This document shows, piece by piece, positions 22,329 through 31,376 of a stretch of 64,000 bases of DNA. This DNA is from Pseudomonadota bacterium. Its GTDB lineage: Bacteria; Pseudomonadota; Gammaproteobacteria; UBA9214. How positions within the stretch are numbered: the stretch's first letter is position 1; the number at the start of each line of letters is the position of its first letter. The DNA is taken from the NCBI GenBank assembly GCA_039714975.1, contig JBDLIH010000006.1, positions 9,325 to 73,324 on the forward strand. Reading direction: 5' to 3'. The notes under the pieces were generated by a model, which was not told where the DNA came from, did no database searches, and saw only the letters and a list, made by a program, of their open reading frames with translations. The position numbers were made by a program, and so were the translations under genes.

Positions 22329-22360
22329 CAACACCAACCTCCCGGCCCCGGTTCCCGCAG

Positions 22361-22425
22361 TGTGAATATGTCACACTATTCGCGTGAATACCTCATACCT
22401 GCATGTGGCCTCCCATTACTATCCT
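22361..22425 (+). promoter_or_regulatory. Double-box promoter P1 (TGTGA-N5-TCACA, 7 nt, CGTGA-N5-TCATA, 22 nt, TATCCT)
   Basis: Same architecture at 23371, 30004 and 31107. Confidence 0.6.
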
Positions 22426-22431
22426 TAGGTT

Positions 22432-22561
22432 ATCAGGGATTGACGTCATGGATGACTGCCAGGGATGGCAACCCATGACTTTTGATTATGGAGGTAACTC
22501 TGCCGCATCTGCGAGCGAAGACCTGACCGGGAGCCGGTGCGGACACCTGAGGAATGAACAA
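22432..22561 (+). promoter_or_regulatory. GGA-hairpin-rich leader (putative CsrA/RsmA-binding RNA)
   Basis: Seven GGA in 130 nt, e.g. GTCA-TGGA-TGAC, TGCCA-GGGA-TGGCA, GGTG-CGGA-CACC. Confidence 0.55.
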
Positions 22562-23182
22562 ATGGGCAAGGAAGATCTCATCTTCTTCGCAGACAATGAC
22601 CCGCAGACGTCCAGTCAACACTGCGTAACACTTGATCGTGCAGGCTACACGGTCAAGCGCTGCCCGTTGAACATCCTCGCCAACACCCTCAACGGCACGC
22701 TGCAGGGTATTGTGGTACTGAACCTGGGCAGTAACGTGAAGGCCGGCCTGGAGACCCAGCAACAGCTGATTGCCGATGGCCGTGCGTGGCCGGTCATTTT
22801 TATCACCGACTGCGAGCAGATACCCGAGGCGGTCAAGGCCATGAAGGCAGGCGCCACGGACTTCCATGTGACATCCGTTTCTCCCGGGAAACTGCTGCAC
22901 AGCGTCCAGGAGGCCATGTTGCAACTGGATGCCGAGAAAGACCTGCAGTTACGTCGCACAGGCATAGAGCAACACTACATAAACCTGACCCGACGTGAGA
23001 AGGAAATCATGGAATACGTTACCAACGGGGTAACCAATCAGGACACTGCGCAGCAACTGGGTCTCAGTATGCGCACCATTGAGGTGCATCGCTCACGGAT
23101 TATGGAAAAAATGGGGGCAAGGTGCCTGGCCGATCTGACACGCATGGTCGATCTGTGCAGACTGTGCAGCAGCAATCACTGA
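22562..23182 (+). CDS. FixJ/LuxR-family transcriptional regulator with degenerate receiver domain
   Basis: PVIFIT...AVKAMKAGATDF receiver-like region; LTRREKEIM..V.NG.TN...A.QLGLS.RTIEVHRSRIMEKM LuxR HTH; start 22562 chosen over the upstream ATG at 22403. Confidence 0.85.
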   Translation: MGKEDLIFFADNDPQTSSQHCVTLDRAGYTVKRCPLNILANTLNGTLQGIVVLNLGSNVKAGLETQQQLIADGRAWPVIFITDCEQIPEAVKAMKAGATDFHVTSVSPGKLLHSVQEAMLQLDAEKDLQLRRTGIEQHYINLTRREKEIMEYVTNGVTNQDTAQQLGLSMRTIEVHRSRIMEKMGARCLADLTRMVDLCRLCSSNH

Positions 23183-23207
23183 CAGCCGCCGCATCTGCAA
23201 CCCCGGC

Positions 23208-23295
23208 ACAAACAAAACGGCGACCCGTGAGGGCCGCCGCTGAGGAGCAACTATGAAAAAAACAACAACTACACTGTAGCGCGTAACCCTCAGCA
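23208..23295 (-). ncRNA. Candidate small RNA on the minus strand (ends approximate)
   Basis: Minus-strand terminator CGGCGGCCC-TCAC-GGGTCGCCG-TTTTGTTT with no minus-strand CDS upstream; GU-rich tract and CUCCUC motif. Confidence 0.4.
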
Positions 23296-23370
23296 GCACA
23301 ATACGTATATACACGTACTCCGAAAGTCACACGAAATAATTCTGCCTGAAGACCACCTGCCATGCCCCAC

Positions 23371-23434
23371 TGTGAATAAATCACACCTGCCATGTAACTA
23401 CTTCATACCCGTCCTGCACCGGAATCACTATGCT
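23371..23434 (+). promoter_or_regulatory. Double-box promoter P2 (TGTGA-N5-TCACA, 7 nt, TGTAA-N5-TCATA, 21 nt, TATGCT)
   Basis: Aligned with P1/P3/P4; directly upstream of the small ORF at 23473. Confidence 0.6.
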
Positions 23435-23472
23435 GATATCAACAGGACAGTATAAACATGTAGAGGTGTACC

Positions 23473-23715
23473 ATGGCTATAGCGAATAGAGATGTCGAAA
23501 TAATATTGCATGTTGACGAAACGCTGGGGGTATCCCGCCGCAATGATCTGACCAATGCATTAAAGAGCAAGGCCGGTATCAGATCGGCAGAATTCTGCCC
23601 GTTACGCTACCACCTGATGCTGGTCAGCTATGATCGGGACAACCTGACATCACAGGACATCCTGCATCAGGTCACCAACCAAAATGTGCATGCCCAGTTA
23701 ATCGGGCCCGTATAA
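23473..23715 (+). CDS. Small HMA/ferredoxin-fold-like hypothetical protein, paralog 1
   Basis: 80 aa, GAGG RBS, pattern LHV..AL...GI....F...HL..VSYD; clear similarity to ORF 30100. Confidence 0.75.
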   Translation: MAIANRDVEIILHVDETLGVSRRNDLTNALKSKAGIRSAEFCPLRYHLMLVSYDRDNLTSQDILHQVTNQNVHAQLIGPV

Positions 23716-23890
23716 TATCCAGCATAACCCGGTCAGGGAGGAGACACCGGTTGATGGACAGGATGTCCTGATGCCGGTGGCATTTTTGTCATCAGGTCCG
23801 GGGCTGCCACAGGAACAAACCAGCTTGTTATTAGCCTGTATCTGCTCCATTATAAACAGCACTCAAGCAAGCATGCCATGACATAGCTAC

Positions 23891-29662: not shown

Positions 29663-29911
29663 ATGTCAGATGATAATACGATAAGCATTAATTTGAAATT
29701 TAACAAGAATCTGAAACTGAAGGAAATAGTGCACATATTCAAGGATAAAAACGGGAACGAGAAAAGCAAGAAAATAAAGGCGAAAAAGAAATTCAAAGTT
29801 GACTTCGACAAGGTCGATGCGATGTGCGATGTGACCCTCATAAGAGGCGAGATCGCTGGCGTGGACCCCTACTGCATCAAGGTTGGCGGGACGCTGTACT
29901 GTTTCCCGTAA
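29663..29911 (+). CDS. Small Lys-rich hypothetical protein with C-terminal Cys pair
   Basis: AAGGAG RBS, 82 aa, ends DPYCIKVGGTLYCFP; AT-rich relative to neighbours. Confidence 0.6.
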   Translation: MSDDNTISINLKFNKNLKLKEIVHIFKDKNGNEKSKKIKAKKKFKVDFDKVDAMCDVTLIRGEIAGVDPYCIKVGGTLYCFP

Positions 29912-30003
29912 ACCGGATATTCGTTTATCCACATGCCGACAGGGACGCCGGCAAGTGTAATTACTCGCTACCTTCAGTGCCCACCCGCTTCATCCTCTCT
30001 TTT

Positions 30004-30068
30004 TGTTAATTTTTCACAGTTAATTTGTTGCATAAGTCATAGCTGCGCTTCCCTTGCCTGCATAGACT
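30004..30068 (+). promoter_or_regulatory. Double-box promoter P3 (TGTTA-N5-TCACA, 7 nt, TGTTG-N6-TCATA, 21 nt, TAGACT)
   Basis: Aligned with P1/P2/P4; directly upstream of ORF 30100. Confidence 0.55.
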
Positions 30069-30099
30069 GTCTGCAGGTTTACCACACGGGGGAGAGATT

Positions 30100-30348
30100 A
30101 TGGGAATCGTACAATTTCACAGCAAGCAATCAGACCTGGTGTTGCACGTAAACGACCAGGTAGGTGATGTACAACAGCGTGACATTGAATCAGCACTTGA
30201 GGAAAACCCCGGTGTTGTTAATGTGGAATTTACAGAAAACCGTCCGCGCCTGATTCACGTCAGCTATGATCAGGATGAAACAAGCTACATTGAAACTCTT
30301 GAGCGACTTTGCAGCCAGAACGTGCACGCGCAGCATATGGGTGACTGA
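30100..30348 (+). CDS. Small HMA/ferredoxin-fold-like hypothetical protein, paralog 2
   Basis: 82 aa, GGGGAG RBS; shares LHV, AL...G, EF, VSYD.D, QNVHAQ..G with ORF 23473. Confidence 0.75.
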   Translation: MGIVQFHSKQSDLVLHVNDQVGDVQQRDIESALEENPGVVNVEFTENRPRLIHVSYDQDETSYIETLERLCSQNVHAQHMGD

Positions 30349-30406
30349 TCGGTAGAGATATACCTGCAGGAGCACCTTGCAGAGAGTTCTGGATTCCAGG
30401 GAATAC

Positions 30407-31051
30407 TCACCAGCCGTGCGGTAATTTTTCCTTGATGACAATATGCTTTTTGTTAACCTCGATATAACCGCCCGTTTTTAACTCCTTCAGGATCCGGCTC
30501 ACCATCTCCCGTGAGGCACCCACACGGTTGGCAATATCCTGCTGGGTTAACGCTTCCCTGACAACCAGGTTATCACCCTCCTCTACAGCCAGCTCCAGCA
30601 ATACCCGGGCGACCCGGCCATAGACGTCCATCAGGGCCAGACTGCGTACATTGTCCGTCAGTGCCCGCAGCCGCTTGATGAGGCCACACATAATCTTGCG
30701 CATGGCGTCCCGGTGCAGGAACAAAAACTCGTCGAAGTCCGGCCTGGAAATGATAACCATCTTGCTGTCTTCAATCGTCATGACCGATGCAGAACGGGGA
30801 CCGGAGTCCAGTAGCGCCATTTCCCCGAAATAGTCCCCGGCGCCCTGATTATTCAGAATAACCTCCTTGCCCTCATCGTCATTCAGGAACACCTTGACCC
30901 GGCCTGACAGAATGCAATAGAGGGAGTCGCTGATATCCCCCTCATTGATAATAATGGTATTGCGGGGATAGTGACGGGTGACAGCCTTGCTGGATAGCGT
31001 CTTCAGCTCCGCTTCTTCCAGATCTGAAAACAAGGGAATATTCGGTAACAT
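30407..31051 (-). CDS. CRP/FNR-family transcriptional regulator
   Basis: cNMP-binding cassette GDYFGEMALLD..PRSASV; HTH LTQQDIA..VGASREMVSRIL. Confidence 0.94.
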   Translation of the reverse strand: MLPNIPLFSDLEEAELKTLSSKAVTRHYPRNTIIINEGDISDSLYCILSGRVKVFLNDDEGKEVILNNQGAGDYFGEMALLDSGPRSASVMTIEDSKMVIISRPDFDEFLFLHRDAMRKIMCGLIKRLRALTDNVRSLALMDVYGRVARVLLELAVEEGDNLVVREALTQQDIANRVGASREMVSRILKELKTGGYIEVNKKHIVIKEKLPHGW

Positions 31052-31106
31052 GGTTAACCTGTTTTTCTGTTTATCGAACCAGTCTCGGGCCAAATTATAA
31101 TGAAAA

Positions 31107-31171
31107 CGTGAATATTTTACACTTTCCGTGTGCATTCCTTGACAGCCATCACAGAAATTCTGAACCATAAT
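31107..31171 (+). promoter_or_regulatory. Double-box promoter P4 (CGTGA-N5-TTACA, 7 nt, TGTGC-N6-TGACA, 21 nt, CATAAT)
   Basis: Aligned with P1-P3; lies just upstream of the GGA-hairpin RNA and divergent from the CRP/FNR gene. Confidence 0.55.
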
Positions 31172-31177
31172 AAAGCC

Positions 31178-31321
31178 GTCAAAGGATGAAAGACCGGCAG
31201 GGATGCCACCTACTATATTCTGCTGGCCACCGGAAAATACCGGTTACAGGAAAGTAACCCATTCTTGTCAGGAATGACTTTGAAGACTCCTCATACTGCC
31301 CGCTGTTGCGGGCATTTTTTT
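31178..31321 (+). ncRNA. CsrB/RsmY/RsmZ-like CsrA-sequestering sRNA candidate
   Basis: Five GGA motifs in short hairpins (GGCA-GGGA-TGCC, GGTTAC-AGGAAA-GTAACC, GTCA-GGAA-TGAC, others), then a terminator, ~145 nt, no plus-strand CDS. Confidence 0.65.
31297..31321 (+). terminator. Rho-independent terminator ending the GGA-hairpin RNA
   Basis: TGCCCGC-TGTT-GCGGGCA-TTTTTTT. Confidence 0.8.
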
Positions 31322-31376
31322 GCCTGGCAGCGCAGCGGACCGTTTAGCGCAAATATCGGTATAATCCGCGCCATCC

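Follow-up and report, generated by a model that had tools for sequence, protein, structure and literature searches.

The question raised by this locus is whether a block of genes lying between rmuC and yciK in an uncultured gammaproteobacterium is a single signalling system and, if so, what message it carries. The window, meaning here the whole stretch of 64,000 nucleotides (nt) that was analysed, is part of contig C6 (JBDLIH010000006.1) of a 3.37 Mb assembly in 164 contigs that is 93.6 % complete. Within it, the block encodes an outer-membrane barrel protein, a CHASE2 class III nucleotide cyclase, a Crp-family regulator, a LuxR-type regulator, and three small proteins, together with palindromic boxes and GGA-bearing hairpins. 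The genes and motifs listed by a first-pass annotation were all found, by Pfam, box search, and alignments, where it had put them or close by.

The reading proposed here takes the block for a mobile island, some 9 kb long, whose genes form a cyclic-nucleotide cascade from envelope to transcription of the NsrA/CHASE2-cyclase/Clr kind, with a cyclase of an Asp/Arg subfamily that is distinct from NsrA/CyaK and widespread; taken jointly, these statements are considered probable. What was computed is the gene content, the insertion, the synteny, the conservation of residues and of the leader, and the enrichment of the box; domain calls are from Pfam throughout.

The insertion and its relatives

The features that define the island and its core are as follows.

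22317..31265, no strand: inserted island, from the rmuC stop region to the ancestral rmuC terminator, right edge placed to within about 30 nt either way
23891..26146, plus strand: CHASE2 class III nucleotide cyclase, 751 amino acids (aa), Pfam CHASE2 E 7.6e-35 and Guanylate_cyc E 2.2e-10
26306..29623, plus strand: outer-membrane protein FecR-TPR-barrel, 1105 aa, Pfam FecR E 3e-16, TPRs, and a weak OMP_b-brl match
30407..31051, minus strand: Crp-family cyclic mononucleotide (cNMP) receptor/transcription factor, 214 aa, Pfam cNMP_binding E 1.4e-25 and HTH_Crp_2
21048-22328: rmuC, left neighbour, Pfam RmuC
31377-32147: yciK (SDR), right neighbour, Pfam

The first-pass annotation had taken the block to be inserted, and it is: yciK follows directly after rmuC, as an empty site, in 18 of 20 same-genus genomes, which marks the 9-kb block as a real insertion. 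For this comparison, RmuC was searched for in 37 genomes and matched in 34, and the rmuC region was fetched from 20 of the 33 other matching genomes. When the window flanks were aligned to the empty sites of genomes G022 and G009, both junctions could be read, the left one directly after GCAGTCGAA, near the rmuC stop (~22317), and the right one at ~31265; the yciK promoter region is ancestral, as is the terminator at 31297-31314. In G048 and G052, rmuC and yciK are separated by this block as well, with LuxR-type gene, cyclase, FecR-barrel gene, and crp, and a block occupies this site likewise in the window, in G001 (locus L019/L044), and in locus L042. In G012, an island with an 82 %-identical cyclase is on a different contig and the genome's own rmuC-yciK site is empty; no integrase or transposase family was found by Pfam among the six open reading frames (ORFs) flanking the island on that contig. 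The seven island cyclases (window and L040-L045) form one clade with support of 100 in the tree, and an order of events that would fit the pattern is one old insertion, later losses, and one relocation.

Beyond the genus, the core of Crp-like regulator, CHASE2 class III cyclase, and FecR-TPR-barrel protein recurs across 64 related loci from several phyla. These loci, recruited with an alignment of four cyclases from one-genome-per-species contigs, are mostly from uncultured Gammaproteobacteria, and also from Nitrospirota, Desulfobacterales (Desulfobacterota), NC10, Rokubacteria, and others. A survey of their neighbourhoods bore out the expectation that the components keep together in relatives. 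In 46 of the 52 loci with at least 800 nt past the cyclase, the next gene downstream is that of the FecR-barrel protein, and a Crp at least 40 % identical to that of the window is encoded in 29 of the 52 with at least 900 nt upstream, being divergent and directly upstream in 23; seven further loci have a weaker, same-strand Crp-like gene.

Several observations concern the surroundings of the island. The insertion has altered the end of rmuC, the frame of which runs a few codons longer than in the empty-site relatives (22300-22330), and has parted rmuC from its own terminator, now 3′ of the island. The G+C fraction is 0.46-0.47 at 26000-26499 (the cyclase-barrel spacer) and at 29500-30499 (the Cys-tail ORF, promoter P3, and small82, all described below), against 0.54-0.62 in neighbouring stretches. 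A 747-aa AAA_22 ATPase gene (window 32206-34449, minus strand) lies between yciK and a thioredoxin-like gene; it is confined to the window and its nearest relatives (G022, G023, G009, G051, and G012), with other sequence or nothing in this place elsewhere in the genus genomes examined. G014 (L009/L071) carries a further version of the module, with a cyclase of another subclade and crp divergent upstream, and G001 has a second locus (L024) with crp, barrel gene, and cyclases; these extra versions indicate that the module entered the genus more than once.

Receptor, cyclase, and Crp-family regulator

The cyclase was aligned to solved cyclases from the PDB. The metal-binding residues D505 and D549 and the transition-state residues N623 and R627 are all present, as in class III adenylate cyclases, but the two residues that specify the substrate are neither the Lys plus Asp/Thr/Ser of those enzymes nor the Glu plus Cys/Ser/Gly of guanylate cyclases. 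The first position, four before the second metal Asp, is Lys in adenylate cyclases and Glu in Cya2 (2w01), and is here Asp545; the second, in a Y-x-x-x-G-D-x-V-N motif, is Arg616. The departure from ATP-type residues noticed in the first-pass annotation is therefore confirmed. Other CHASE2 cyclases of the same genus (GTIDKYVGD and YTVIGDAVN) have Lys/Thr at these positions and, by alignment, CyaK has Lys/Ser.

The unusual pair is conserved. Among 60 sequences (the window and the 59 of the 64 loci matched across the core), the first position is Asp in 56, Asn in three, and Ser in one, and the second is Arg in 58. The full D-D-D-R-N-R signature is found in 53, D-N-D-R-N-R in three, and degenerate forms in four. 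In the tree these 60 cyclases are set apart from eight Lys-type enzymes by a branch of 1.29 with an SH-like approximate likelihood-ratio test (SH-aLRT) support of 100, a result that shows distinctness and is not an independent test, the groups having been set by recruitment.

According to PMC7384201, Lys plus Asp/Thr goes with ATP and Glu plus Cys/Ser with GTP, the Glu bonding guanine N1/N2. On that basis a 6-oxo purine fits a first site that accepts and a second site that donates, which favours GTP: Asp545 could accept from N1-H/N2-H and Arg616 could donate to O6, roles that would be chemically similar to those of the guanylate-cyclase pair. On the residues, there is perhaps an even chance that the substrate is GTP and the product cyclic GMP (cGMP). 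Cyclic AMP (cAMP) or another cNMP is also a possible product, this being unreadable from sequence. In the uridylate cyclase BcPycC, a Tyr, an Asp (D94), and an Arg are reported to recognise UTP (PMC11224242); D94 would be the equivalent of the Asp545 position, which makes UTP a possible substrate too. No Asp/Arg pair was met with among the matches listed in a literature search on CHASE2, cGMP, and class III substrate specificity.

The protein encoded downstream of the cyclase is the presumed receptor. Its AlphaFold2 (AF2) model, from a 24-row alignment and with a mean predicted local distance difference test (pLDDT) score of 80.6, comprises a signal helix, a beta-rich FecR part (37-191), a TPR solenoid (214-561), and 22 long strands (602-1099). 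The best Foldseek matches are barrels of TonB-dependent transporters (FpvA, FptA, FoxA, FecA, FhuA), with E ~1e-16 over 560-590 columns. Such transporters combine a 22-strand barrel with an N-terminal plug; Pfam finds no plug domain or TonB_dep_Rec in this protein, the N-terminus of which is instead made up of FecR and TPR parts.

The lack of a plug leads to the suspicion that the next gene supplies a plug or co-receptor.

29663..29911, plus strand: Cys-pair small protein (C-x8-C-FP at the C-terminus), strong ribosome-binding site AAGGAG, no Pfam family

This role for the Cys-pair protein is a guess. The ORF had been called an orphan, a description that can no longer stand, since positional relatives directly after the barrel gene are found in 15 of the 33 loci that reach the barrel end (ATG starts only, no more than 700 nt from the barrel gene); 12 of these have two Cys flanking a Gly turn, and the other three lack Cys. 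Signal or lipoprotein peptides are present in some of the relatives, and not in the window copy or the other copies from its gammaproteobacterial genus. A profile of the family found 37 representatives; of the eight scanned with Pfam, all five long ones contain beta-propeller repeats (RCC1, SBBP), and these matches may be a chance likeness of beta-hairpins. In the same-genus island of L045, four or five units like repetitive extragenic palindromes (GTAGGAGCGGTCT.CTGACCGCGAT...) lie between the Cys-pair ORF and crp (L045:16230-16590).

The crp ORF extends to 31168, and the domain positions fit a start at ATG 31051. The protein matches Mycobacterium CRP, E. coli CRP, and Clr (7pza, E 4.6e-26) in the PDB, and is 95 % identical to its counterpart in G012 and 70 % to those of L043 and L045. 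Compared with E. coli CAP, it has Leu-Thr at 127-128 and a CAP-like recognition helix, R-E-x-x-x-R. According to PMC11224242, the residue at the CAP S128 position is Ser/Thr in the cAMP type, Asn in the cUMP type, and Glu in the cGMP type, as in XC_0249, so that the Thr of the island protein is of the cAMP-receptor type. Clr is reported to bind both cAMP and cGMP through a TT motif (PMC10127613), and the Thr therefore does not discriminate between the two.

The sites at which this regulator might act are four regions, each placed in the first-pass annotation as a promoter of one architecture.

22361-22375, plus strand: P1 box 1, TGTGAATATGTCACA, with degenerate box 2 at 22383-22397 and −10-like TACTAT at 22417-22422
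from 23371, plus strand: P2 box 1, TGTGAATAAATCACA, with degenerate box 2 at 23393-23407 and −10-like CACTAT at 23426-23431
30004..30041, plus strand: P3, box TGTTAATTTTTCACA (1 mismatch), with a second degenerate box and −10-like CATAGA
31107..31144, no strand: P4/crp control region, boxes CGTGAATATTTTACA and TGTGCATTCCTTGACA, between divergent crp and a candidate RNA

The common architecture stood up to alignment, with 67 % mean column identity of P1-P4 over 81-85 nt, and the four are putative promoters. Each strong box is followed ~22 nt on by a weaker box, with a −10-like hexamer another 18-21 nt further, so that the weaker box would lie near −40 and the strong box near −63. P1 is conserved in six genomes in both its boxes and its −10-like hexamer. 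A weaker P2 counterpart precedes the small80 homolog in L041, and P3 is unseen in relatives because small82 has no homolog in L040-L103. In P4, the first box has two mismatches and the region is conserved with G012 up to ~31155; its boxes may act on crp itself, as autoregulation, their direction being undecidable from sequence.

The site of E. coli CRP is a 16-bp palindrome, TGTGA-N6-TCACA. The island box is 15 bp, one base shorter, and perfect TGTGA-N5-TCACA occurs in the window only at 22361 and 23371. A search with N6 spacing (TGTGAA-N5-TCACA) missed these perfect sites and gave 11 matches against 20 expected, and was set aside. The genome as a whole has five perfect N5 sites, two of them in the island, and all five are outside ORFs of at least 150 aa, although such ORFs make up 86 % of the genome. 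In the 31 Crp-bearing loci, perfect sites number none for N3, none for N4, 12 for N5, five for N6, one for N7, and none for N8; all 12 N5 sites start TGTGAA and have an A/T-rich centre. The best box is that before the LuxR-type gene, which is retained in L040 and L042-L045. Together these counts suggest that the island Crp binds the N5 boxes. In distant loci, only one of 25 crp-cyclase intergenic regions has an N5 box with up to one mismatch, and the box is thus no general control element of the cyclase operon itself. The tandem architecture was not found at any other perfect or near-perfect box in the genome, and no wider regulon could be defined.

Further boxes were noted elsewhere. Perfect TGTGAT-N3-ATCACA sites outside long ORFs are present in the same genome at C57:119, C3:39848, and C45:20917, the first with a run of GGA motifs ~100-150 nt further on. 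In other genomes, boxes at L048 (1809, 16890, 19642, and 19737), L075:8024, and L076:16658 precede three Sel1-repeat proteins, a PAS-GGDEF protein, and a BTAD/Trans_reg_C regulator, which hints at lineage-specific regulons of the module Crp, including a link to cyclic di-GMP.

Targets and the GGA-bearing leader

The candidate targets and RNA elements are the following.

22423..22561, plus strand: GGA-rich 5′ leader of the LuxR-type gene, conserved core 22423-22481, fold z = -2.66
22562..23182, plus strand: LuxR/FixJ-type regulator with a pseudo-receiver, Pfam GerE/LuxR HTH and a sub-threshold receiver match
23473..23715, plus strand: small80, an 80-aa HMA-like protein without CxxC (AF2, Foldseek)
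23716..23795, plus strand: small80 3′ stretch with GGA hairpins CCGGT..CAGGGAGGAGAC..ACCGG and GGAC-AGGAT-GTCC, read from the sequence
30100..30348, plus strand: small82, a divergent small80 paralog (tblastn)
31178..31320, plus strand: candidate GGA-bearing small RNA (sRNA), with its start placed from a CATAAT hexamer, five GGA motifs, and local hairpins

The first-pass annotation had proposed Csr/Rsm-type sRNAs among the outputs. What stands of this is a conserved leader of the LuxR-type gene, found in seven loci. Six genomes share three GGA motifs 3′ of P1, and the motifs are fixed while their flanks vary. The core forms the hairpins GTCA-TGGA-TGAC and GCCA-GGGA-TGGC, and the gene's ribosome-binding site (GAGGAA, ~22550) is overlapped by one more GGA. 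In an alignment of seven sequences, helix 3 (GCCA-GGGA-TGGC) is invariant, and the pairing of helix 2 (GTCA-TGGA-TGAC) is kept through a UA to CG double change in three; the first hairpin is poorly supported, with 52 % of cells paired. Pairing across the leader drops from 80.5 % to 9-40 % once the partners are slid. A covariance model of the leader (R1) matches once in the genome and gives seven full-length matches (58-73 bits) in 65 sources, the next match scoring 14 bits. In L041, the same promoter and leader precede a small80 homolog in place of the LuxR-type gene.

The spacing between box and hairpin also recurs. GCCA-NGGA-YGGC is found 91-97 nt past an N5 box in the window, L040, L041, L043-L045, L076 (93), and L080 (91), and 127 nt past it in L042. 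Of the motif's occurrences, 8 of the 17 in the loci are box-linked, as is 1 of the 10 in the window's own genome. L076 and L080 belong to another cyclase subclade, with RmuC 58-60 % identical against 65-84 % within the genus; the element is followed in L076 by a BTAD/Trans_reg_C regulator and in L080 by a 60-aa ORF without a Pfam family. Downstream of 16 perfect boxes, taken in both orientations (n = 32), the mean number of GGA hairpins is 0.97 against 0.45 at random positions, a weak effect in related sequences.

The P1 leader thus has what is looked for in Csr/Rsm-type elements, several conserved GGA motifs in hairpin loops, and the candidate sRNA does not. Five CsrA genes score above the Pfam cut-off in the genome (C41:1500-1655, C7:21586-21741, C130:539-694, C13:33619-33774, and C76:5350-5505), and the chance that CsrA binds the leader may be put at slightly better than even. 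No match to a known Csr/Rsm RNA family was found. An Rfam scan of 21000-33000 at E ≤1 gave no matches and so no Csr/Rsm family, and models for RsmY, RsmZ, and CsrB found nothing above their gathering scores in the genome. GGA counts in non-coding stretches are not above those of dinucleotide shuffles (P 0.11-0.54), those of GGA in an A context giving P 0.011-0.06. In a crude genome scan the leader is one of 17 regions with at least five GGA-loop hairpins, and the top regions inspected are coding or repeat sequence; genome-wide scans of GGA density, dominated in the same way, did not reveal other Rsm-like RNAs and give no basis for claiming that there are none. The GacA/UvrY box is TGTAAG-N6-CTTACA, and with up to one mismatch it is absent from contig C6. 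A literature search found no paper joining CHASE2 and CsrA.

The free-standing sRNA beside yciK is weakly supported. It has a fold z of -2.16 and a terminator at 31297-31314; its 5′ part is island-specific, and its last hairpin and terminator come from the ancestral 3′ end of rmuC. It is not conserved in L040 (G012), L043, or L045, three relatives that hold the region, and nothing past the boxes is shared with G012. It is therefore at most a possible sRNA that would be specific to this genome. G012 carries different cargo in its place: an extra N5 box, CGTGAATAGTTCACA, lies past the shared crp control region, followed by a GGA-rich stretch and a 26-codon hydrophobic ORF (L040:9651-9900).

The ORF of the LuxR-type regulator opens at 22403, and the domain positions fit the shorter, likely start at ATG 22562. 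The protein aligns over its full length to StyR (1yio) and FixJ (5xso). NarL/FixJ response regulators have a phospho-acceptor Asp and a Lys; the window protein has Asn and Thr in their places, in agreement with its earlier description as Asp-less. The acceptor is lost only in the window and G012, and L042-L045 retain both Asp and Lys, which suggests that the target conserved among relatives is an orphan FixJ-type regulator of the ordinary kind and that phosphorylation was lost in the lineage of the window.

The two small proteins are paralogous, as had been noted (34 % identity over 74 aa, E 2e-10, tblastn), and HMA-like by model. The AF2 model of small80 (pLDDT 80.5) has the beta-alpha-beta-beta-alpha-beta fold of HMA domains, with Foldseek TM-scores of 0.76-0.80 to them. 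The CxxC metal-binding loop is absent from 26 aligned members of the family, in which His13, Cys42, and His47 are conserved at places other than that loop. Pfam assigns no family to any of the three small ORFs (23473-23715, 29663-29911, and 30100-30348), its HMA match to small82 reaching just E 0.11. Homologs of small80 number 746 proteins at E ≤0.01, many at 60-70 % identity, and form a large family without a name. Nine paralogs of the family are encoded in the genome, and only the two island copies have an upstream box (up to one mismatch). One paralog, 69 % identical (C36:15516-15737), adjoins a 36 %-identical paralog of the LuxR-type gene (C36:15998-16585), so that the pairing of an HMA-like small protein with a FixJ-type regulator recurs outside the island; that small80 copy has no upstream N5 box. 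The small80 3′ stretch has a weak terminator-like hairpin (23770-23784) in the terminator scan, and its GGAC-AGGAT-GTCC hairpin is retained in L041; its fold is no better than that of shuffled sequences (z = -0.63).

The proposed cascade and its rivals

In the cascade proposed here, the plug-less, TonB-transporter-like barrel of 22 strands, with its periplasmic FecR and TPR parts, would sense a cue at the cell surface, possibly assisted by the small Cys-pair protein, and would hand the signal on to CHASE2, the periplasmic domain of the cyclase in the inner membrane. With its catalytic residues intact, the Asp/Arg cyclase would then make a cyclic mononucleotide, most likely cGMP. This would be bound by the Crp-like protein, which would activate promoters carrying the 15-bp TGTGA-N5-TCACA palindrome and a weaker box near −40. 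The conserved target would be the FixJ/LuxR-type regulator with its leader of CsrA-binding-type GGA hairpins, its output probably gated by the CsrA proteins, or the leader titrating them; the lineage-specific targets would be the two HMA-like small proteins and the GGA-bearing RNA. The signal flow, the nucleotide, activation by the Crp protein, and the binding of CsrA are steps that we infer. A stronger version, in which the product is not cAMP, a dedicated Crp reads the N5 palindrome, a conserved GGA-hairpin RNA is driven by Crp, independently of Gac, and ties the cascade to the CsrA network, and the Cys-pair protein is the missing plug or co-receptor, is doubtful when all of it is taken together.

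Several points weigh against this reading. It is based on sequence and model computation, and the related loci are kin sequences, so that their counts are not independent. To these are added the single boxed region among 25, the several possible products of the cyclase, the lack of conservation of the candidate sRNA, the negative results on Csr/Rsm families and GGA counts, and the absence of a nearby Crp gene in 16 of the 52 loci, three of which are short contigs of the window's lineage. These last loci bear on the view that the genes are neighbours and not one cascade, the boxes being read by another Crp paralog and the island Crp answering other cyclases. The genome does encode several Crp-family proteins, including paralogs at 52 % (contig C24) and 39 % identity (C89), and has at least three other class III cyclase matches, and palindromic boxes cannot be assigned to a protein by sequence. 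Yet all 14 perfect N5 boxes in the loci belong to lineages with the module Crp, 12 being in Crp-bearing loci and the other two in L041 and L088, short contigs of such lineages; crp also travelled with the cyclase in the moved island of G012 and stands directly beside it in the 23 loci noted above. The likelihood that the genes work separately is consequently judged to be slim.

Another view is that of an ordinary cAMP module, with the Asp/Arg cyclase making cAMP, the Crp being a plain cAMP receptor, and the GGA motifs incidental purine-rich sequence or resembling ribosome-binding sites, with no link to CsrA; the island would then be a further system of the NsrA-CyaK-Clr type that has few, local targets. 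The Thr at the S128 equivalent is accompanied by an intact R-S phosphate-binding cassette, and Ser/Thr there is the usual cAMP determinant (PMC11224242); the shuffled GGA counts, the empty Rfam scan, and the unconserved free-standing sRNA are all as such a module would have them. It accounts less well for a charge-swapped pair kept in 53-58 of 60 sequences across phyla when K/T-type CHASE2 cyclases exist in the same genus, since by the rule in PMC7384201 the Asp would canonically face adenine N1 and the Arg N6, both unfavourably. Nor would it lead one to expect GGA hairpins invariant amid varying flanks, one helix being compensated, or a box-to-hairpin spacing that recurs outside the genus, and it is considered unlikely without being negligible. 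For the leader there is another reading, that it is a DNA element, three CAnGGAT direct repeats 13-14 bp apart acting as autoregulatory operators for the LuxR/FixJ-type protein. Regulators of the FixJ/NarL type bind short repeats, the three repeats have a regular 13-nt spacing in the window, the first hairpin is the weak one as RNA, and the element always adjoins a regulator gene or a small80 gene. The helical repeat is not matched by a spacing of 13-14 bp, however, and the compensated helix 2, the perfect 4-bp stem of helix 3, and the loss of pairing with slid partners are properties of an RNA. In addition, L041 has the element before small80 with no LuxR gene in its 4.9-kb contig, and no LuxR-type gene follows it in L076 or L080. 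A role as operators is thus improbable, and a cascade with a leader acting as RNA is preferred.

The closest parallel to that cascade is NsrA-CyaK-Clr, as the first-pass annotation had seen. On pSymB of S. meliloti, a 1227-codon stop-to-stop frame just upstream of cyaK matches the barrel protein in three segments, FecR at 31 %, TPR at 27 %, and barrel at 23 % identity (tblastn E 2e-15, 3e-11, and 3e-5). NsrA is described as an outer-membrane beta-barrel receptor on which, along with the CHASE2 cyclases CyaK and CyaD1/D2, cAMP signalling to Clr depends (PMC7529298, PMC13001267). In both systems a FecR-like/TPR barrel protein adjoins a CHASE2 class III cyclase, and the transcriptional output is a Crp-family receptor (PMC7529298, PMC13001267, PMC10127613), a function that would be shared by the island protein. 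The systems differ in the specificity residues, Lys/Ser in CyaK and Asp/Arg here, and in gene order, which is cyclase then barrel in the island and barrel then cyclase on pSymB and in the K/T-type loci of the genus. The reported Clr site is HGTYHCNNNNGRWACA (PMC10127613), as against TGTGA-N5-TCACA; by reading, the island palindrome does not fit the Clr-type core GTNNCNNNNGNNAC, no scan for Clr-type sites having been made. The small Cys-pair protein, the GGA-hairpin leader, and the HMA-like targets are extras of the island, and the host of the island is an uncultured gammaproteobacterium from a marine metagenome, that of NsrA-CyaK-Clr a plant symbiont. To our knowledge, the system of the legume symbiont is the only one of its kind that has been studied at the bench.

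The combination is not as novel as was first claimed. A cluster in Campylobacterota is reported to join a CHASE2 adenylate cyclase, a phosphodiesterase, an outer-membrane protein with a FecR domain, and a TPR protein (PMC9239204), which parallels the island in its pairing of cyclase with FecR outer-membrane protein and TPR and in its horizontal spread; the island differs in having no phosphodiesterase by Pfam, in the fusion of TPR to the FecR-barrel protein, and in a linked crp. Only this paper and PMC5498481 were found in a literature search on CHASE2, Crp, and FecR. Control of Csr RNAs by Crp has likewise been published for enterics, where Crp-cAMP acts on CsrC/CsrB in Salmonella and Yersinia (PMC7591399, PMC3523269); there the island's Crp differs as a dedicated local paralog. 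With CsrB/CsrC/RsmY/RsmZ the leader shares GGA motifs in short hairpin loops and the presence of CsrA genes, but it is an mRNA leader with two to three hairpins and not a multi-site sponge. The barrel resembles FecA-FecR-FecI and other TonB-dependent transducers in its 22-strand transporter-type form and FecR-family periplasmic domain; it has no plug or N-terminal signalling domain by Pfam, its FecR part is fused to the barrel whereas that of FecA-FecR-FecI is an inner-membrane anti-sigma factor, and the output is a cyclase in place of an extracytoplasmic function (ECF) sigma factor. The cyclase shares with Pycsar PycC and Cya2 the class III fold, the metal Asp pair with Asn/Arg, and a first specificity position that is not Lys. 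It is, however, membrane-bound, coupled to CHASE2, and linked to a transcription factor, in contrast to a phage-defence effector; its Arg is at the second canonical position and not beside the metal Asp, and Cya2 has Glu/Gly by alignment where the island enzyme has Asp/Arg. The first-pass annotation is thus partly supported, having been right on the insertion, the cascade, the NsrA parallel, and the odd cyclase, and having gone too far on the sRNAs and on uniqueness.

The island shows that a sister family of the NsrA-type system is common in environmental bacteria, and its charge-swapped specificity pair predicts a product other than cAMP. Were that product cGMP, bacteria would have in this family a large natural store of cGMP signalling systems that act through a transcription factor. 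Should the leader bind CsrA, second-messenger sensing at the cell surface would also be linked to post-transcriptional control.

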